A stretch of DNA of 64,000 nucleotides from Raillietiella orientalis (lineage: Eukaryota), in contig JAYWIR010000009.1 in NCBI GenBank assembly GCA_036172245.1, forward strand, positions 1,426,001 through 1,490,000. The letters are read 5' to 3'. A program made the translations under genes and the position numbers. Each line of letters begins with the position of its first letter. Positions within the stretch are counted from its first letter, which is position 1. Shown in pieces: positions 27,615 through 49,607 of this stretch. The notes beneath the pieces are model-generated. The model was given only the letters and a program-made list of their open reading frames with translations. It did no database searches and was not told where the DNA came from.

Positions 27615-30600
27615 CTAGGAGATGCGCAATTCGCTCGCACCGACCTCCACCGCCGGGCGCTGCAGCATGGATCGACCCGTGTACGGAGCAGTCAGCTGGT
27701 CCACACTCAGCGGGTTGTTGGAATCGTGGGGGTTCGCTCCGACCGGGCTGCGGTGGGGGTTCGAAGGGCTGTTCAGCCCGGAGCTGCCGTAGGCTGGCGG
27801 TCCTGAGTTCGGCGGCGTGGGGAAAGGCAGGCTCTTGGCGATCCCGCAGGAGGCGGCCGGGTTCTTCTCCCCGGCGTAGTCCGTTTGGGGAGTGAGTGGG
27901 TCCGAGCTCGCCATGCTCGCGTTCGTCCCAGGACTGGTCAGCTGGCTGAGGCTTGGGCTGGGCAACAGAGGGGCACTAGGACTAGCCAGGCTGAAACTCG
28001 GGCTCGACAGGCTCGTGCTCAGCTGGTTGACGCTCGACATCACAGAGTGACAGTCACTGTCCGAATCGTTGGCTCTGGAATCAGGAGTGAGCGGGTCTCC
28101 GGTGCTTTCAGGGTCATCGCCTCCGGGGTCGGAGCCCTCGAAAAAGCGGACGCACTTTTTCTTTCTCCTGGAAAACAACGACAACGGGGTTGGCTCGGTC
28201 GGGGCTGGGAACACACGCTTGGCTTCAGGAATCACCGTCCCTTGCGAGGTGCACGCACGCACATGGAAGAGCAGATAGGAGGAGGAGGAAAGCAGACGAC
28301 GACGGCGGGACGAGCGGGCGCGCGCCGGGAGACGCTCCTCGGAGGTGTGCGAGAAGTTCCGCGGTCTTCTTGCAGGGGAGGTTCGACCGCCCTCAGCGCG
28401 CAGCAGAACGTGAGGGAAGCAAGGGCGGATCGGGGGGGGGGGGGGAGGATAGAGAGAAAGAGCGAGAGAGAGAGAGAGAGAGAGGGGGGGGGGAAGACTT
28501 GGGAGTCGCGGGACGTGTTCGACCTCGTTCAGAAGAACCAACGAACACGCCCTGCGCGGCTGCTCGCCGAGAGGGCGGGAAGAAGCGGACGGAGGCGGCG
28601 CAGTTCGCTCCGCGCCAACCGGGGGGGGGGGGAGGGCGGTGGAAGACGAAGCGCTGGGGAGAGAACCCCCGCGACTCGCTGCTGCTCTCCTGGCGCCGTC
28701 CGTCTCGCTTGACACACAGGCTATATCCTCTCGCTCGGTCCCAGATTAACTGATGAATGCAACTGCTTGACGGGACTTAGCGCCCTGCCACTGATTGGTG
28801 GTGGTTTATGCACAGTGGTAAACTCCCCGGCGCGACCGGCTGAGGAGACGCGCGAGCGGCAGGCCGCGGAGGATTTTCCCACCTCCACTGGAGGAAAGAG
28901 AGGCTGCGTTTCCGTTTCGCCTTCCCTTTCTGCTGACGTCGCGATGGCAACGCCAGGAGTTCGGAAAGACCGCGGCGACCGTCCGTTCCCCCCGGCTTGG
29001 GGGGGAGGTGGGCCGGCCGAAGAGCAGCCGGCACTCTCAAGAGGGGGTTCTTCGGGGTTCTTTCTGATGCCGACCGATGCCCGCGCCTGCCTGCCGTCCG
29101 CGGCGCGGGCATCCACCCAACGAGGCACTCGGTGGTGCGGGTTCCCGGAAGACGACGGCGCGCCCTTGGCGACGGGGGAGCGCGCGCAGAATGCAGACCC
29201 GACCTTCCCTCTTCGTCTGAGGTCCCGTGCGAGAGGGGTGGCGGAGGTCCGCACGCCTGCGTGGCTGGGAGACGCCGAGACCCCTCTGCCCGTCCCCGGA
29301 GCGACGGAAACGGGAGAGGCGGCGCCCGGGTGCGCGCGATCCGGAGGGGGGAGCCAGAGAGAAGCACAGCAGCCCACAGCAGACGATCCCGTCCTCCCCT
29401 TCTCCTTCCGAGGAACGGGGGAGCGCGTCGGGAGCTGCCCGTCCTTCCTCGGCACTCTTTGTCCGTCTGTCGTGTATCCTTCCCCTCCCTCTTCCTCCTT
29501 CTGCCCGCCCTCAAACGTGTACCACCAACGACACTGACGGAAACAACAAATCTGGCGAGACGAGCATGCAAGAAAAAATAAAGAAAAGGAAATACCTGGA
29601 CTTGCCCACTTAGGACGCGTCCCTACACACGAGATCTCTACAGGTTGACATACGTGAGAGGGGGAGAGGGCGCATCCGCGGGGAGAACAGGGGAAGAAGA
29701 GCTTTGGTCATTTAATGCGCCCGTGTCAAACGAGGCCGGCGCGCAGCGTCGACGACCCGGCGTGGACGGGGCTTCCTCGCACCGTCCCGAGCTAACACAG
29801 GATTTTAGGGAATGTGCCGTGCCGCCGGCGGGACGGAGCCACAGTGGTCGCCGGCTGGGTGGCTGCTCCGACGCTACGATTTCACGCTCGGAACTTTTAG
29901 GGGAGCAAAAAATGAATCAGAGTGCATCCTGGACACACAGAGATTAGCTGAACACACATCAAGACGATCAGGGGATGCTTCACTGACCAGCTGGGGAGAC
30001 AGAAAGCAAGCGGAAGGTCGTGGGACTTCTCTTCCGGATGAGGAAGCAGCGGAGTGCCTGCTTCGCTGTAGATTCCTTTTTTTTTTTTTTTTTTTTTTTT
30101 TCTCGAATCTTCCCAATTATGGAGACGAACGGGAGGAAAGGAAGGAAGAAACGGAGAAAAAAAAACAAACAAACAAAAAGAAGCGACAATCATCAGGCAG
30201 GGGAGAGCAGCTGGGGAAGGCCCGCTGCTTCGCGCGCCGGGAGTGGCGAAGAGAGGGGTGGGGGGAAAGGGGAGGAGCGCAGCGACAACACTAAGAAGCC
30301 AAGCATGCAGCCGGCGACACTGCTGAGGGGGGAGACGCAGATACACCGACATGCAGGGGACCCGGATGCTCCTCCCCTCCCCCCTTCCGAAAAAGAGGAA
30401 CAGGAAGAAAAAAAAAGGAGAAACGAGGAGGAAGGCGGGAAGGCAGCGACAGCGTCGGCAGCAGCACCCCCAAACTTCTTGGGGTCGGTTCTGCAGCAGC
30501 TTCTCCCGATCTCTCTCTCCTTTCCCGTGGTTTCCCTCCCACCTTTCTCTCTCTCTCTCTCCTCGAGGCGAGCGACTTCGCGAGATCCCCGTCCCCTCTC

Positions 30601-33052
30601 CCCCCCCCCGCTCGCAATGCCGGGAGAAGCAGCGCTCCGCGACTGCAGCGGGAGGAGTCGGAATCTTCTCGGAGCGCCTCCTAGCAGCTTCTGCGATGCT
30701 GCTGCCGCGCGCCAGACGGTCGAAGACAAGCAACCAACTGCGCGAGAAGGTCCACGGCAGGGGGAGGGGGGCTCCGAGAAATTCCTTCCCCCTCCCCTCC
30801 CAACTCCTCCTCCTACTACTCCGCCATCCATCCTCCCGCATGCAGGCCGCGAGGGAGTCTCGCCGGGGACGAGGTGACTGCCTCGGCGGGCGACGGACAT
30901 CGGCGGACCGGAAAGGTCGGACGTCCTCGAATGGGGACAGGGTGCTCATAAGAAGGGGAGGAGAAGGGGTAGTCTCCGTCGCGCAGAGAGCTTCCAGAAG
31001 AGAACAACCGCATCCTCCGCGCTGGAGCCCTCTCTTGCGATCTCGAGGGTCGGATCGCGCGCGTTGGGAACGCTTCCATTCCGATGAAGGTTCCTTGGTG
31101 GACAGGGGGAAGAAAAAAGGGGGGGGGGGCAGGGGAGAACGAGGCGGAGGACGATGAGAGCAACTTTTCCTCCGTGGGGTTTTCCTTTGGATATCCTACG
31201 GGAGATGCTGAGGAGTGGTCGCCGCCCCGCAAAGCAAGAGCGAAATTCCTCCGCATGGCTTCTTCTGGAGGAGAAGAGCGAGCGAGCGCCGTCGTGTTTC
31301 GCACCTCATCCAGCCACTCTCGCAACGGTTCCACGGATGAGGGGAAGCTGCACGGAAAGACAGGAACAGGTGAAGAAGAAGAAGAAGAAGAAGAACGCGA
31401 GCTCCTCGGCGCAAGAGAGGCACAACAACAACAGAAGGGGGGAAAGCGGAGGAGGAGGAACACGAAACCACGGTGACGAAACGGAGCATCACTGCCACTG
31501 CTAAGACACGTGCAGAGAACGAGAGAGAGAGAGAGAGAGAAATAAAATACGGAAGAACAGCCATGCACGGCAGAGAACGGGCAGCCTCCTTACCTGCACG
31601 GTTTGCACCACTGGTTCTGATGCTCCAGTCCGAATCTCGCCCGGCACTTCTTTAAGCTGGCACCTGAAGCGCACAGAGGAAATTTAATGGAGGAGAGGAC
31701 CATTCGAGCATCAGAAAGGGGACGGGAAAAGGAGGGTGACGAAGGGGAGGGCTGTTGGCATGCAGAAGAGGGGGAGCAATCCAAACACAAACACACGCAC
31801 ACGAGCACAGCAAGTGAGAGGGCAGGCGAAGAGGAAAGCACCTGCAGCAGCAATGTATCAATGTATCGGGTGGGTCATCGTCATCTCTGGAGCAGACTCG
31901 TGAGGGAGGTTCCTATCTTTCTTTCTATACCTTTCTTTCTCATTTTTAACAAGGAACATCCCGTGACGCGCGAGATGCACGGGACGCACTCTCTCACCCC
32001 GGAGCACCGATCATCGCGCCCGCGGACGTTCGGTCGCGCGTTCCACCCAGTGTCACCCTGCGGTCGCACGCCGGCATTCACAGTTGGTCACAGTCTGTAG
32101 TCACAGCAGAGTGAGTGCGCGCTCGCACACGCACACGCGCACACACACACACACACGCACACACACGCACACACACGCACACGCACTCGGTCAGCCACCC
32201 GGTTCCCAGCCACACAAAGGTCACACACGTCCTCGCTTGAGCGGGCGCGCACATGCGTGCGGTTTCTGTCTTTTCCTTCTTCAAACGGGCGGTGCCGCCG
32301 GCCGGCGGCGAGGCGCACGAGGTCGTCGGGTGACGACCTCTTGGTGACTACTGCTAGCTGAGAAGACGTCGAGGGACGGACGTCCCCTGCCCCCTCCCGT
32401 CCGGAGGAGACGCGGAGCGCGCGCGCGGCACGGAGAGGAGGAGCGCGCGGCACGGCGGAGGTGGCGGCGGAAGCGTGGTTGCATGCGGAAGGGTCAAGAA
32501 CAGAAACAAAAGGTCAAAACAAACAGAAAGAGGGAGAGAGCGAGAGAGCGAGCGAGAGAGAGGGAGGGGGGGGGGGAAATAGAGAGATAGAGAGAGAGAG
32601 ACAGAGAGAGAGAGAAGGTGGTGGATGAGGACAGGAGAGAGCTGAAACCACACACTCCACAGCCACAAAAGCCATGTACCCACAAGCCATAAATGAGATG
32701 CAAGAACTACCTCCATCGGCAGACTTTTCTCGCTTCCTTTTCTTCTTTTTCGAGCTCTGCGCATAGTTATCTCTCGCGGACCACCCCGGGTACATTAGGA
32801 GATGCAACTGCCTCTCTTTTTGGGCCATGTCATAATATTTCCCTTGCTCTTCCCGATTTAACGCGTGCCACTAGAACGAACCAAAGACCGTTTTCAGTTA
32901 GCGCCGCAGAAATTCCCCTCACTGCGTCCCAAGTAGGGCTGCAACGCCGCGCGTGTGTTCGGACATTCCCACTTTTTTTTTTTTTTTTTTTTTCCTTTCC
33001 ATTTTGTGAGTGTCTCCTTTTCTCTCTTTTCGCCGCATCGCACCGCTTGGTT

Positions 33053-33093
<41 letters not shown>

Positions 33094-36000
33094 GGCTTGG
33101 CAACGGGATACGCGGGGGTTCAAGCCGGGAGGAGGACCGTGGATCCCACACCGTTCCTCCAAGCTTGCAGATCGCCAGCTTCTGGTCGCCGGTGCGAAGG
33201 TGTGTGTGAGTGTGTGTGTGTGTGTGTAGGAGGAAGAGGAAGAGAAAGAGAAAGCGCGAGACAGACAGATGGTCGGGGTGGATGGGAGATGGAATCGACT
33301 CTGCCTTTTTTTTTTTTTTTCTTTTTTTTTGCGCGCGCGCGCGAACATTGCTGAGTGAGGTGGGAAAGACAGGCAACAGCAAGGAAGAACAAGCATTCGT
33401 CGGATGGTACCTTCATATGGCTTTTCTTTTTTCCTTTTCTTTTTCTTGGTCGCCAGACCGTAAGCATCTCTGGCGTTCCAGTTGGGGTACAACTGCATGT
33501 GAATCTGCCTTTCTTTTCGGGCTTTGTCATAGTACACAGCCTGCTCTTCCTTCGACAGAGCGTGCCACTGGCGGATAAGTCACGTGAGTTGCACAAGCCA
33601 CGTGGTGTGGAGGAGAGTTCGCAAAGCACCCCGACGGCGTCGCAAGGGGGGAGGCGGGGAAGAGGAGGAAAAGACGCAGGAGGGGGAAGTAAGGGTGGGG
33701 GCAGCGAAGGAAAGGGTCCCTCTGCAGGAGGGCCGAGGAAGGAACGGAGGCACAAGGGGATGGAGGGCGAGGAAGCTGCAGATCGGCTCGAGGAGCGTGG
33801 CGGCGACAGGGAGGACGACGGATATAGGATGGACGGAAAGAGAGAGCAGGCCGCCGCCACGCCCACCGGGGCACCGGCAGGGAGCCAAGGGAGGCTGCGG
33901 TGCGGGACGACGGGGAAGAGCAAGCCCCTCCCTCGCATCTGCTGCCAGATCGCCTTGCGCCACGGGTTTCCCCGCGGACAGGAAAGAGAGAGAGACCGGG
34001 CAGATCGCCTGGAAACTGCGTGAGACCTCCCGAGCGGTTTCCAGGCGATCCTTTCTTCCTCCTCCTCCTCCTCCTCGTTTTCTTCTTGTTTCTTCGAGGA
34101 AAGCGAAGGAGAGGAGGAAACATTCGTGATAGCAGCGCGGCATGGTTGGCGTGGAAACCGGAGCGAGCGACGCTCCGGCTTTCAAGTTCTGGGTGGCAAC
34201 GAGGAACCATTGGTGAGGGTCGCGCGAGCGGACCCTTACGCGCTGTGCGCACGCGGCGAGTTTCCCGGGAGACACTGGTAAGGAGGAAAGGGGGTCGGAA
34301 AGGGGGTGCACGGAGGGGGAGGAGGGAGGAACAAACGCGCGCGCGCTCGCGCGCGCGCGGGAGAGCAGCAGCTTGCCACGGGTGTCGAGCGGGGGACCAA
34401 GGAAGACTCACCCGCCTTCCAAGGATCTGGTTGATGGCGGCAGACTCCTTCAGCGTGCACTCGGCGACCACTTTGGCCCGCATCTCTTTCATGTACAGCA
34501 TGAAGGCATTCAGGGGCTTCTTGATGTGCGGCTTCTTCTTTTCCTCGGCCGCGTGGCTGCCGGCCACCTGGCCGGCGGCGGCGGCCTCCTTCTTCAAGAC
34601 CGGGCTCTGACTGCTACTCGAAGGCTTCTGCCCCATGCACTGCCTTGGGGAAAGGGGGAGGGGAGAAGGGGAGGGAGGGAGGGTCAGCTGGGAGTTGGAC
34701 GGGCGGGGCCAGTGCGCGCTACCTGCTGCCTTCCTCGTACTTCATCCCGGACGACGAGTGGGAGATGCCCGACGTCAGCAGCCCCGAGTGTCCTGAGAGG
34801 GGGTGGTGGGACGAACCAGTCACCAGCCCTGGGCTGAACTTTCCTGCTAGGCTGTTGGGTATTGGAATGGAATTCGAGTAGGGACTAGGTCGGAAGGGCG
34901 AGGAGGCCGAGTAGACGGCGGAGGGATGCCTGCGGGAAAGACACGCCCAGCCTTTGCCTTCCCGTCCCGGGGTCGCCACGAACGGCGCCGCTCCCGTCCG
35001 CCGTCCTCAGCGCCTCAGCCCCTCCCGGACGTTCCGGGAGGAAAGCGAGCGGAACAAAAGGAGGCAGCGTCGGGAGGCGCGGGAGACGCAGCTGTCGGGA
35101 GTCGAGGAGGAGCTTACCATGGAGGAACCGGTGAGAAGTCCGGCGTCATCATGGGATGGTACTGGGCAGGACCGAAGTGATACATGTGAGGCCTGCCTAT
35201 TCCTGGACAACAGGAAGGGGAGAAGGGGAAGAGAGAAAAAAAAAAAAAAAAAACATGGAGTCAGCATTCGCCAAGCAGGCAGACGAGCGCCGCCTGCCGC
35301 GCGCAGTCTTCGCCTCCGTCCCGCGCTCCTCGGTTCGATGCGCGTGGGGTGGGAGCACCGTCCTCCTGTCCGGGCCCCCCGCGCGCGACGGCGGGAAAAC
35401 GGCGTCTCCCCGATCCCTTCCTTCCCTCGCCCCTGCCTCTCCCTCATCCCTGGCGAGCGTCCGGGATGAGGGATCGCCCGTGCGCGACGGCTCTGCGAGC
35501 GAGCGAGGCCATCGCGCCGCGCCTTCTTTTCCCACGTGGACGGTCGATCGCCGATGCTGCTGCTGCTGCTGCTGCGGTCATTCGTCTCTTCAGAAAGGCG
35601 GGGAGAAAAGAGGAAAGCAGAAATGAGAGGGGAACGGGGCAAAGGGTGAACAACTCCAGGGAAGACGACAGGGTGCGAGGCGGACCAACGGAATTCGCGA
35701 ACGGGCAGGGTGGGGTGAGGCGTAGGAAAGAAAGAAAGAAAAGAAGAGATAAAAAAAAAAATAGGAAAGTAGGAGGAAGGCGCGCCCGCCGATAAGCATT
35801 GGGCAGCCAAAAAAACAAAAAAAAAAGAAAAGAAAAGAAGGAAAACGGCGGTCCTGAAGATGGAGAAGGCTTTCGCGGAGTTGCGAATGCGAGAGACGCG
35901 CCGTTGGTCCGTTCCTTTCTCCGTGTTTCCAAGCAAAAGGGGAGAAGAGAGGAAAGGAATATCCTGTTTCGCGAGCACTCCAGGCTCCCTCATGTGCGCC

Positions 36001-38716: not shown

Positions 38717-41700
38717 TTCGCTCTTTTTTTTTCTTTCCTCTCTTTTCGCCTCTTGGGCTGAGGAACGCTGCTGCAGTGACCGGAACGAAAGAACGACGTG
38801 TAAGACCGCCATGGAGGCTGCGAAACAGAACCTCAGAAGAACAAGGCGGGCATCCCTACGCACGCTGGGGAGGGGGAGGATTTCCGAAGCGGCGACGACG
38901 ACGACGCCGGAAAGAACTTGAGACACCTCCAGATGAGGAGTCGCAGAAAGCGGCAAGCTGCTTCCCTGCGTGACGTCACAAGGCAGACACGACGGTGGCG
39001 CGAACTTCAGAACTCGTGCGCCGAGCGAACAACTGGACGCAAGGCTCCCCCCCCCCCCGTCGGAGGGGCGGGGGCGAGAAGAGCGAGGCACCACCGGCGG
39101 AACCAAGGTGGAAGGGGAAGGCCATCCTCAACCGGGGCGGGGGGGGGGGGGGTAAGGGGAAGAGGCGACCTCCAGCTCCGTGGCGTGTTCCGTCGCCACG
39201 ACCCGACGTCTCCTCCCGCGCCATTCGAAACCGTTGCTGCGCGCCCTCTCTCGCTTACCCCCTCTCTCTCGGGAATCCAAGTGTCTCCGGGTAGAGACGG
39301 GGAAGACCGTCGTTCCCCGAGGAGAGGAGCGGCCTCCATGGCAACGACGAGGACACGCGCACGCGGCTTTCCAAGCTGCCGCCAGCTCGGACTCTTCGCT
39401 CGCCGCTCGAAGACGCGCGCGAGACGCTGCAGCGAACGGCGGCGGAGCAGAAGCAGGAGGAGGAGGAGGAGGAGGAGGAGGGTGCGCGGAGGAGCAGGGG
39501 GAAAAAGAGAAGGAGGGAGAGAGAGAGAGCGAGGAGGAAACCCCTTCTGTCCGGAGGAGGAGGAGCAGAACGCGGAGCGCGCCGGACGGGAGATCGGAAA
39601 GCCCTGTTCGAGCATGGCGGACGAGCGCAGCGCCGCGGCTCCCGCCCGACTCGCTCTGCGCCTCCCCCGCACGCGCAACAGAGCGTCGTCTCCAGGAGCG
39701 GAAGGAGCGCACCAGGGACCATCCCGAGGTTAGCAGCACAGGAGGACGCTCTCTTCCTGCTGCCGCCGCCTTTGATGGCTTCTTCCTCCGCGACTCGCAT
39801 CCAAAGAAGAGACCGCAGGGAGGATCGCCGCGGAAATGCTGGGGGCGTGCCCCGCTTGAGGGAAGGGGGAGCGGCCCGGGCATTTTTGGAGGGAAGCCTC
39901 GCTCGGTGGGTCCGTCCCGGGAGTCGCCGCAGAGCGGACGAACGGGACCGCCACCCGGGAGGGGAGGGAGCTGGGCCCTTGGAGACGGGGGGGTGGGGTG
40001 GGGTGGAAGGGCCGGCACGTCGAGATGCGGGAGAGCAGGAGCGCCCAAGGTCAACGGCAAGGGCGGTTTTCTCGACGGACGGAGGTCTGCCGGTCGCGGG
40101 CGCACGCGGGGCCCGGGCAAAGGACTTTCCATGGTGCTCCGTGCAGCACGGCAAGGGGAGTGGAGGGGAAAGGGCGTTTCTCTCGGGCCCTCGGGGCCGC
40201 CCCTCCTCCCCCGCGCAACCTCGGAAGGAGGCCGTCGCTCCCAGAGCAACCAGCGAGCGCACGGGCCGAACCTGCCCTGGCAGAATCCGCACGCCGCCAT
40301 CGGCGCCGCTCCGCGCCATGTGCCGCGGCTACGTACCGAGACCGGCGGCCTTGGGGTCCAGCTGGTAAGGAGACAGCCCCATGTGGGCCGGAGGGGGCTG
40401 CCCCAGGTGCTCCGAAGTGCCGTTATGGTAAAAGAAAGACAGCGGTGAGCCAGGATGCGTGGGAGGCAGCGGCATCTTCCCCGCCTGAAAAGAAGTGACA
40501 CTCCGTGTAGCTGGGGGTCGCGTCCTCCGGGAGGGGCCGGCGACGGAGTTGGCCTCCGACGGGCGTGAGGCATCTTCCCGGCGACGAGGGGTGCGGGTGA
40601 GGGGAAAGGAGGCCCTCTGGCCCTGGAGGCGCAACCCCCTCCGTCGCGCCCAGGGAAAGCGGCTCTCCGGGCGGAGTCCCTTGTGGGGCGCGCTAGCTAC
40701 TTCCCCCTTCCGGCTCACTCTCCCGACGATCGAAGGACTTCCGGGAACGCGAGGCAGGTCTGCCGGGAGGACGCTCCCTTTGAAGTCCCTTTGATCCCGC
40801 CGCCAGTATTCCGCACCCCCAGGAACGACGTTAACCGCGCATTAGGGCGCTTTCGGGAACCGAATGGAACGTCGGGGGAAGGGGGGACGATCCCATTAGC
40901 GCTCCCCACTGCACCCGGCAGGACCGCGACCGGGGAACAGCCGCGAGAGGCTGTGCTGCGACGGGGAAGGGGGAAGGGGAGGGGGGCGCCGAGGGCAAAC
41001 TAATCAGCGGCCCGCCCCCTGCTCGGAAGCAGCCCGTCCCGTGCTGGCCGGGCAGCCTCTCGGGGGTTGAGAAGGGGGAGAGGCCCGCGAGCCCCTCGAG
41101 ATGCTCCGAGGCATCACGGGCGCATGGGCGCGGCAGGAGAATCGAATGCGCTCTCCCCACCCTCCCGAAGTTGCGGTCTTCGCCACCTGCCTGCGACTGC
41201 CCGACCCCCACAGGCGCCTTCGGACCCACGGACGGACGCGACCGGAACGCGGGCCCGAGAGGGCAGAGCTCCCTCGTCGCGACGCGGCGGCCATTCATGG
41301 CCGTCTCCCACTGCCCCGTCCTCCTCTCCCTTCCCTCCACAAAAACCCCGAGGCATCCCGGCGGAGGGAAACTCTCCAACTGAGCTTGAGGCTTGAGGGA
41401 GAGGGAGGGAGGGGGGTGCGTACATCCCATCCCACCTTGTGCCGTCTCTTCCCGAAGGAGGGAGGGGGGGGGGGAAGGAGACGCCCGAAGGAGAGCGCCA
41501 GGGATGACGCCAGGAAGTGGGGAGAACCTGCTGATTTATTGAGGGCGCGCCTCGTTTCCACGGAAGCCCCCACGTGTTTCCCGGAGGCTCCAAGAGGGAA
41601 ACCTGCGACAGGGAATCCTGTTCTCCGGGAGGCTCTGCTCCCAGCTTCCCCCTTCCTTCTCCTCCTGGCCCCGTCTCTCCTCTACTCCTTTTTTTCTTCT

Positions 41701-47700: not shown

Positions 47701-49607
47701 CCTCTCCTCTCCGGAAAGTGCGGACCTCCGCGTGACCCAGGAAACGACCGTCGCAACCTGCCGTCGGCGCGACGATCGCGGACCTCCGGGGCAAAATCAG
47801 CCTCATTGCCGCGGGCGGGCTTGCGATTCCTTCTCCGCTGCCCTCAATCGCGCCCCTTTTCTTCCTTCCCCCGCCTCGTTGAGGCAGATGGGAAGGGTTG
47901 CCGGGGGAAGAGTGGCAGTTGTCGCCGCAAGGGGCAAGCAAGGGAGACGCTTAGGGGTCACCCCGTGAGCTGGCGCCTCCGACTTCCACCGTCGCCTTCA
48001 AGGGAGGGGAGGGTTGCTGCGAGCTCAGCAGGGATTCCGGACGTTCCCTTTCCCGTGGGGCGCGCAGTTCTCTGGGGGGCGATTGGGTGCCACAATCAGG
48101 CAAATTCCTCCTCCTCCCCCCCCCCCCAAGATGGGAGCGGAAAGAGGGGCGGATGACCCCCACGGCGGCCTGCGCTAGCATAGGCACGTGTGGCGGGACC
48201 AGTGGGCGAGCACGTGCGAGCATGACCTGAAAACCCACGCCGCTGCCGCCCACGCGGCGGTGGTGGAAGGAGGGAGTGCTCGGGAAGAGGGGGGGGGGGG
48301 GGGGAGCAGTGCGAAACAGGAGGTCAGGAGGGAGGAGCGAACGAGGTGGCCGTTCCACGTGCCTCCTGCCACGGCGCCGTCCTTCGCCCACGCGAGCTGC
48401 CAACCTTTCGCTGGCGAAGGGCACTGCGCCTGTCGGCGACGGCGGCGGAGGCGCCGCGCACAAAGTGCGCAGGGGACGCGCCTTCCTCCCTCGGCGGCGG
48501 CCCGCGGCACTGTGCGTGCACGAGCGCCTCTCCTGCCACGCGGTGGGAAGATGGGGGGAAGGGGGCACATATGGCGAGGGCCTGATACGGGGCGCCATGT
48601 CGATCCTTTCCCTCCCTCCCTTGAAAGGAGGGAGTTGCGAGCGGACGCGCTCGGCCACGACCACGGGATGAAAGGGGTATTCACTGTCTTGATCGGGGGC
48701 GGGGGAGGGGGACGAATACTTCCTCGGCACCTGCGCGGGCGCCGAGCATCTCCGGAAGAGAGGATGGAGAAGGCGAGTCGAGCACGCGCGGTGGAGCCCG
48801 CCCGCACGCGCCTTCCCACCCCCTTTCCCTCCTGGCCCCCCCCCGTCCCTCCTTCCTTCCCTTGCGTTCCTTCGGATGAGAGAGGGAAGCGGCGCGGAGG
48901 AAGCCTTCGTCCACCCAACCACTCGCGCGCCCTCGGGACGAACAAGGAGCTCACCGAATAGAGTTGCGTGGTCGAATCGGAATCCTTCCTTGGCACCGAA
49001 GGGGTGGCTGGGGACGTGCGTGCTGCGATCCTGAAACGGGAAAACAGGCATTAGGAGGGCGGCACTTCACACGGCCCTCCCCCTTGGGGACCCTCCGAAG
49101 GAAGTCTGAAGGGCAAGGAGGGCAGGCGGGGGAGCAGCAAGGGCGTTTCTCGAACCCTTCGGGTGGAGGAGCAGGAGGGAGAGAAAAAGAGACGGGTGCG
49201 TGGTGGCGGTGAGGGGACAAGCCCCGGGGCAGCGTGCACTAGGGAGGAGGAGGGGGGGGGGAGACGTTTCCACGCACGGCTCCCCCCAGTCCTCGCGGGG
49301 AGGAGCGACGGGAGCACGAGGGGGCGGGGGAGGTCGACCTGCAGGGTAAGCGGGAAGGAGAGATGGCAGGCAAGGCAAGCAGAGAGAAGGGGGTGGGGTG
49401 GGGTGGAAGGGGGGGGCGTTGGGGCAGGGCCGGGGTGCAGTACGGCTTCACCTCCTCGGACTGGGTGATGAGGCTGTTCTTGTCCTCGATGAAGCTCTTC
49501 TCGGACGTGATCTTCTCCTCTTCACCTTCGCCCTCTTCCTTGTACACTTTCACCTCGTCGCTGGGACCGAGGTCGTCCGCGCGGCCGCCGCCGTTCACGT
49601 GCGGCAT
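27615..49607 (-). CDS. pan: TCF/LEF family HMG-box transcription factor (pangolin/TCF7L ortholog) with C-clamp, ~592-593 aa
   Basis: Exons on the minus strand, all GT-AG and phase-consistent: 49452-49607 ([27 protein letters not shown], beta-catenin-binding domain), 48955-49030, 46602-46696 ([14 protein letters not shown]), 40337-40484 ([16 protein letters not shown]), 35118-35202, 34723-34929, 34412-34643 ([42 protein letters not shown]), either 33411-33567 or 32711-32870, 31594-31663 ([19 protein letters not shown]), 27615-28167 (RRKKKCVRF...[22 protein letters not shown] stop). An in-frame TGA at 49644-49646 upstream supports the ATG at 49607. Confidence 0.96.
32123..32185. repeat. Imperfect (CA)n/(CG) microsatellite in the TCF intron after exon 8b
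   Basis: cgcacacgcacacgcgcacacacacacacacacgcac... Confidence 0.9.
32711..32870 (-). CDS. pan: TCF alternative exon 8b (paralogous HMG-box C-terminal half + basic tail)
   Basis: ttctag|TGG...GGA G|gtagt with a CTAAC branch-point motif at 32897-32901; 160 nt, phase 0 to 1; encodes [53 protein letters not shown]. Confidence 0.92.
33200..33227. repeat. (TG)n microsatellite between TCF exons 8a and 8b
   Basis: gtgtgtgtgagtgtgtgtgtgtgtgtgt. Confidence 0.9.
33411..33567 (-). CDS. pan: TCF alternative exon 8a (HMG-box C-terminal half + basic tail)
   Basis: ccag|TGG...GAA G|gtacc; 157 nt, phase 0 to 1; encodes [52 protein letters not shown]. Confidence 0.92.
39762..39777 (+). promoter_or_regulatory. 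Candidate bipartite TCF site (Helper + HMG site), in TCF intron 4
   Basis: GCCGCCG immediately followed by CCTTTGATG. Confidence 0.4.
40777..40805 (+). promoter_or_regulatory. Candidate Wnt response element: two tandem TCF HMG sites + Helper site, in TCF intron 3
   Basis: CCTTTGAAG (40777-40785), CCTTTGATC (40788-40796), GCCGCCA (40799-40805). Confidence 0.55.
44323..44352. repeat. (GCC)n trinucleotide repeat in TCF intron 3
   Basis: about 9 tandem GCC units. Confidence 0.9.

Follow-up and report, generated by a model that had tools for sequence, protein, structure and literature searches.

Tandem HMG exons in TCF genes

The single TCF gene of insects, including Drosophila pangolin (dTCF), carries one of its exons twice in tandem, i.e. 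the exon for HMG-box positions 39-69 and the adjoining basic tail. The upstream copy bears ...YYEKAR... and ...NYG... motifs, and the downstream copy is strongly derived (...PDWSSRAN...GKKRKRKQ...). Both Drosophila forms were reportedly described in the papers of 1997-98 on the first cloning and the gene structure of dTCF. Here we analyse a 64 kb stretch of Raillietiella orientalis DNA (contig JAYWIR010000009.1, positions 1,426,001 to 1,490,000; hereafter the window), which by its sequence matches holds one TCF/pangolin gene of a crustacean, barnacles being the closest among the named matches. The same exon is present twice in this gene. The upstream copy (8a) falls into the same tree group as the insect upstream copy, whereas the downstream copy (8b, ...KKKKRKREK) looks ancestral, unlike its derived insect counterpart. 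We consider 8a and 8b to be the local copy of an old pancrustacean pair of alternative HMG exons within one TCF gene, most likely spliced exclusively (probability roughly 0.8).

Comparable pairs occur in malacostracans (e.g. Oratosquilla oratoria and Panulirus ornatus), the a type of which is the nearest named relative of 8a (76-82% identity). Their b type (...WSSRQNYSQG...) is unlike 8b, and the preceding exon ends in ILGRK rather than the ILGRR of the window. The single Tcf gene of Platynereis dumerilii also possesses two alternative exons within the HMG domain, documented by reverse transcription polymerase chain reaction and genomic sequencing, but according to the excerpts of that paper these cover the start of the domain, i.e. 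another exon, and presumably represent an independent event (PMC5996498). Two pangolin isoforms of shrimp are mentioned, with reference to another paper, in the excerpts of PMC8365339, which do not state the difference between them. Alternatives for the exon encoding the HMG C-terminal half are not described in the excerpts of PMC5996498, PMC12865960, PMC9303524, PMC6783274 and PMC4963812, nor in those of PMC4989106, PMC3896468, PMC3923563 and PMC8365339. Searches of the open full-text literature found no paper describing or comparing a pair of the 8a/8b type, although genome annotations contain it.

Two intact exons encoding the C-terminal HMG half

The pair and the intron that separates its members lie as follows (nt, nucleotides).

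33411..33567, minus strand: exon 8a, upstream alternative, HMG C-terminal half and basic tail, 157 nt, phase 0 to 1 (sequence, Pfam, BLASTP, tree)
32711..32870, minus strand: exon 8b, downstream alternative, HMG C-terminal half and basic tail, 160 nt, phase 0 to 1 (sequence, Pfam, BLASTP, tblastn)
32871..33410, minus strand: intron between 8a and 8b, 540 nt (sequence)

Both exons had been proposed in an earlier prediction made from the letters of the window (the original prediction), as intact alternatives with valid splice sites, strong nucleotide divergence and purifying selection on each, and this description holds on every count. Each exon corresponds to positions 39-69 of the 69 in the Pfam HMG_box model (expect value, E, 2.5e-5 for 8a and 4.1e-5 for 8b). 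The splice sites are AG and GT in both cases (a slash marks the exon boundary): acceptor ...ccgccag/TGGCAC and donor ATGAAG/gtacca for 8a, acceptor ...cgttctag/TGGCAC and donor ATGGAG/gtagtt for 8b. Both translations are free of stops, that of 8a running through 52 open codons and retaining all invariant HMG positions (W1, H2, L4, Q9, Y12, Y13, E19, R20, H23, Y27, P28, W30, R33 and Y36). Global alignment of the two peptides gives 31 of 52 columns identical, exactly the number previously counted by hand, and BLASTP aligns them with 23/36 identities (E 2e-18).

At the nucleotide level, 93 of the first 144 bases are identical. The Nei-Gojobori proportions for codons 1-48 are 0.85 for synonymous sites, i.e. 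saturated, and 0.24 for non-synonymous sites (non-synonymous distance, dN, 0.29), so that both copies have been under constraint at the protein level since they separated. A third copy of the HMG C-terminal half was not found in the window by tblastn with five TCF proteins (from a barnacle, a barnacle-like transcript, a lobster and a tick, plus one further protein). The two exons are neighbouring, similar in length, homologous and equal in their splice phases, which are sequence features of a tandem mutually exclusive exon cluster.

If either exon can be used, the two resulting TCF proteins would differ only in about 52 residues, comprising the C-terminal half of the HMG domain (residues 41-86 of the LEF-1 structure 2LEF) and the basic tail. 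The swapped part of the protein would be the DNA-bending region, which also acts as nuclear localisation signal.

The reading frame admits one exon at a time

The exons on either side of the pair, common to both putative variants, are the following.

34412..34643, minus strand: exon 7, HMG-box N-terminal half (sequence, Pfam, tblastn, with the match at 34543-34412)
31594..31663, minus strand: exon 9, the C-clamp exon, 70 nt (sequence, tblastn, frame test)

Exon 7 ends in phase 0 (...ILGRR/gtgagt) and exon 9 starts in phase 1. The lengths of 8a and 8b are both 1 modulo 3, so that each shifts the phase by one, and exon 9 is entered in its required phase after one of them but not after both or neither. 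The original prediction had argued for one-or-the-other use on these grounds, and a scripted frame test of the four possible joinings bore it out.

Exons 7+8a+9: open
Exons 7+8b+9: open
Exons 7+8a+8b+9: stop 13 codons into 8b
Exons 7+9: stop after 3 codons

A read-through protein containing both exons, as it appears in many gene models of other species, is therefore ruled out by frame for the window. The premature stops of the both-exon and neither-exon transcripts lie upstream of later exon junctions. The reading frame itself would thereby enforce exclusivity, transcripts in the wrong frame being stopped early and then probably removed by nonsense-mediated decay. Mutually exclusive splicing of 8a and 8b is, judging from the sequence, the most likely arrangement. 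Under the frame rule only single-exon products survive; which of the two exons is picked is a matter that the rule does not account for.

The same exon pair in other pancrustaceans

No protein identical to 8a or 8b was found among the longer proteins searched, indicating that the TCF of this species is itself absent from the collection. The best named match of 8b was the Amphibalanus exon (84-85% identity). Those of 8a were amphipods (82%, including the upstream copy of Hyalella), other malacostracans (74-79%) and one further protein. Gene models that read through both copies were detected in Hyalella, Trinorchestia, Petrolisthes, Amphibalanus (with a partial a copy) and Mya, in two further proteins and in the springtail Allacma. 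A search with the second Allacma copy yielded 117 new proteins, 28 with both copies and 89 with the second type alone. The former derive from beetles, stick insects, cockroaches, a cricket, moths and butterflies, a mayfly, a psyllid and a wasp, and in all of them the KKKKRKKE/D type lies upstream and the ...DWSSRAN...GKKRKRKQ type downstream. Among the latter are pangolin X2 of Tribolium castaneum and isoforms of 14 Drosophila species; D. melanogaster does not appear in the rows listed in this search. An exhaustive HMMER search with 8a added more two-copy proteins, including those of the copepod Tigriopus californicus and the ostracod Cyprideis torosa and some copepod-like proteins. The order, a upstream of b, is identical in the window and in all pancrustacean read-through models inspected.

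Direct counterparts of the two predicted products are found as RefSeq isoform pairs within one species, with this exon as their sole difference and with equal or near-equal lengths. We read these from the members of ten protein clusters and found them in seven species.

Oratosquilla oratoria: X2 (a) and X1 (b), both 472 residues
Panulirus ornatus: X4 and X5, both 527 residues
Tribolium madens: X1 and X2
Drosophila subpulchrella: X6 and X7
D. suzukii: X13 and X14
Diorhabda: X1 and X2
Leptinotarsa: X1 and X2

The original prediction had added that isoforms of Drosophila pangolin are distinguished by this very half of the HMG box, and that the arrangement might thus be ancient rather than new. 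The D. subpulchrella and D. suzukii pairs bear out the first part of this caveat, and the tree described below supports the second. Only one exon type was seen in the isoform sets of ticks, of the horseshoe crab Tachypleus and of the abalone Haliotis; this fits a pancrustacean origin of the pair, but these are protein models and hence no proof of absence.

Five other proteins (P0318, P0319, P0324, P0325 and P0342) gave three or four half-box matches each. In the printed stretches of P0318 and P0319 the end of a first half-box precedes each of these matches. All five resemble multi-HMG-box proteins or tandem arrays of genes rather than exon pairs.

One old duplication or several

Exon peptides were hand-picked from about 550 proteins, 71 in all, and placed in a tree (51 columns; IQ-TREE with a site-mixture model; 200 bootstrap trees). 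Most near-identical insect rows were omitted, one spurious match was dropped and residues not belonging to the exon were masked. The classes 'upstream' and 'downstream' were set by position before the tree was built. All 25 upstream copies, i.e. window 8a and the malacostracan, copepod and hexapod copies, formed one group (support 98/89), which constituted one side of a branch in 100% of the 200 bootstrap trees. The malacostracan and hexapod downstream copies formed another (98/92). Window 8b was placed among the single-copy TCFs, as were the barnacle rows and the downstream copies of copepods. The two Cyprideis copies (P0323) are divergent, with very long branches, and neither type could be assigned to them, which bears on whether the pair predates all pancrustaceans. 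Two alignment columns behave as shared derived states of the upstream copies: K at column 15 in 16/22 a copies, 0/24 b copies and 1/22 others, and N at column 31 in 14/25 a copies and none elsewhere.

Exon 8a would accordingly be an orthologue of the exon found in the well-known isoforms of Drosophila type and of the malacostracan, copepod and hexapod upstream exons, and 8b would be the alternative type, in this lineage still close to the single-copy ancestral sequence.

The competing view is that the exon was duplicated separately in this barnacle-like lineage and that its likeness to other pancrustacean pairs is convergent. In its favour, the bivalve Mya (P0121) has two tandem half-box copies that both fall inside the mollusc group (98/89), which marks a separate duplication of the same exon. 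It is also the case that 8b is much nearer to the single-copy TCFs than to the downstream type of hexapods and malacostracans. When 8a, 8b and two barnacle-type rows were constrained to group together, a grouping named after the tree had been seen, the log-likelihood fell by 17.7 and the approximately unbiased (AU) test gave p 0.084, which is not significant on this alignment of 51 columns. Against convergence stand the grouping of 8a with all other upstream copies in the best tree, the two derived states K15 and N31, the constant order of the copies, and the 82% identity of 8a to the Hyalella upstream copy as compared with 31/52 to its own neighbour 8b. We regard a lineage-specific duplication as unlikely. 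The phylogeny of shared against independent duplication called for in the original prediction gave a divided answer: the upstream group of 25 including 8a came out as a shared duplication would have it, and the constrained tree withstood the AU test. A single old duplication is the best-supported origin of the pair in these sequences, not a proven one.

Use of exon 8a

Amphibalanus amphitrite pangolin resembles the window gene in several respects. Its match to 8b and to the C-clamp exon is the closest among named proteins, it has ILGRR before the alternative exon, and its a-type sequence starts with ...KEEQAV.Y.KAR.... It differs in that none of the 16 models examined (X1-X16) uses the a exon as a full alternative: eight contain a 22-residue a-derived insert before b and eight b alone. 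The 22-residue in-frame insert reflects either a lineage-specific internal donor or an annotation artefact; window 8a has no GT directly after codon 22, the position matching the end of the insert.

These models raise the possibility that only one exon, probably 8b, is used in this species and that 8a is a silent relic. The long terminal branch of 8a (0.5, against a median of 0.12) points the same way, but that of 8b is nearly as long (0.43). A relic would also have to have kept 52 open codons, AG and GT sites, every invariant HMG position and 82% identity to amphipod a exons, and we think this explanation quite unlikely.

Several points nevertheless weigh against a conserved, exclusively spliced pair. 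No a-only isoform is present among the 16 of Amphibalanus, the closest named relative, so that use of the a exon may differ in this lineage. Use of 8a or 8b in this species is suggested by their intactness and orthology. The nonsense-mediated decay expected for both-exon and neither-exon transcripts is an assumption. Taken alone, 8a and 8b score 25.1 and 24.4 bits, just below the Pfam cut-off of 25.4, as expected for half a domain. The AU result given above belongs here as well.

How one exon might be chosen

Steric exclusion does not explain the choice of exon, the 540-nt intron being far above the minimal intron size needed, as the original prediction had already remarked of this spacer. Incompatible U2/U12 sites were likewise rejected: both donors are ordinary GT sites, and neither appears to match the U12 consensus. 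A scan for inverted repeats followed by duplexfold identified two complementary tracts on either side of 8b.

33192..33232, minus strand: pre-mRNA (CA)n tract, some 180 nt past the 8a donor, within the 540-nt intron (inverted-repeat scan, Tandem Repeats Finder)
32118..32189, minus strand: (UG/CG)n tract in the pre-mRNA, intron after 8b, complementary arm (inverted-repeat scan, duplexfold)

The predicted (CA)n:(UG/CG)n duplex flanking 8b has an energy of -61.4 kcal/mol. When the CA arm was scanned against the pre-mRNA from 34412 to 31594, its strong partners were all confined to a single tract (32.1-32.3 kb, with energies from -61 to -54 kcal/mol), the next best reaching -44. AC/GT-type arrays are few: among the 150 of 156 Tandem Repeats Finder rows listed for the 64 kb there are three, two of them the tracts flanking 8b. 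Pairing of the (CA)n and (UG)n tracts would loop out 8b and draw the 8a donor toward exon 9.

This recalls the competing-pairing systems of Dscam1 and 14-3-3 zeta in that the exons are tandem and homologous and a long duplex is predicted in the introns beside one of them. It differs from those systems in that a single pairing is predicted here, with arms that are simple dinucleotide repeats, and no docking site served by two competing selectors was seen. Docking and selector control of the Dscam type was rejected, there being one pairing flanking 8b and no second selector in the pre-mRNA from 34412 to 31594. As a mechanism of exon choice the modelled duplex, a single simple-repeat pairing, is a lead only. 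A fuller scenario, in which one duplication in a pancrustacean ancestor is combined with a choice between 8a and 8b set by a (CA)n:(UG)n duplex of about 40 bp that loops out 8b, is doubtful. Were it true, the pair would be among the oldest mutually exclusive exons inside a DNA-binding domain, and repeat-binding proteins or variation in repeat length could tune the ratio of the two TCF forms.

The 540-nt intron also contains three poly(A) runs in the RNA, at 32973-32993 (21 nt), 33055-33092 (38 nt) and 33306-33330 (25 nt).

Remaining exons of the gene

The TCF exons found by tblastn with the five TCF proteins are ordered on the minus strand over about 22 kb and are all single except that for the HMG C-terminal half. 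Besides those listed above they are the following.

49446..49607 (approximate), minus strand: first coding exon, N-terminal region (tblastn with P0144, P0128, P0008 and P0015)
40347..40508 (approximate), minus strand: internal exon with the conserved QPPPAHMG motif (tblastn, all five queries)
27690..28167, minus strand: exon following exon 9, remainder of the C-clamp (RKKKC...) and C-terminal region (tblastn, sequence)

In a search for the beta-catenin-binding region, the N-termini of four TCFs aligned to 49607-49446 (44-48% identity, E 1e-4 to 6e-6). Exon 7 matches positions 1-38 of Pfam HMG_box (E 5.8e-10, 39.9 bits, cut-off 25.4). Exon 9 is 65-80% identical to the C-clamp of the five TCFs (KKCRAR..WCKPCR), with the tblastn match at 31664-31593 and RKKKC continuing in the next exon; the isolated 22-residue C-clamp piece of exon 9 gave no Pfam match. 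The exon after it has its acceptor at 28167 (cag/G), and is traced as far as 27690, where its tblastn match (28169-27690) stops. The gene thus encodes an HMG box followed by a basic tail, as seen with Pfam and from the LEF-1 HMG domain 2LEF (residues 41-86), the sole PDB sequence match (E 1.4e-17).

Exon 7 has two candidate acceptors 4 nt apart, aag/G at 34643 and cag/T at 34639, of which the second alone keeps phase 0; the one in use depends on the phase of the preceding exon.

This anatomy bears on a further explanation, already named in the original prediction as one that could overturn it, by which the pair reflects misassembly or a chimeric joining of two TCF paralogs. Nothing was found in its favour. 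Only the exon for the HMG C-terminal half is doubled, the other TCF exons being single and in order, and the same layout recurs in independent assemblies of many species, which leaves a chimera very improbable.

Significance of the exon pair

The exon pair is real but old, and is already annotated in insects (including Drosophila) and in other crustaceans. For the window, the result is mainly the correct annotation of an ordinary conserved feature. The likeness to the diversification that vertebrates obtain from four paralogs, which the original prediction had drawn, is an analogy and not a result.

A switch between two HMG C-terminal halves with their basic tails would provide two DNA-binding or nuclear-import variants from one gene. 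The comparison of sequences suggests that this switch is common to insects, springtails, malacostracans, copepods and this barnacle-like species. Given the presence of the pair across these pancrustacean groups, the switch has probably persisted for hundreds of millions of years, and its retention over that time argues for different roles of the two TCF forms.

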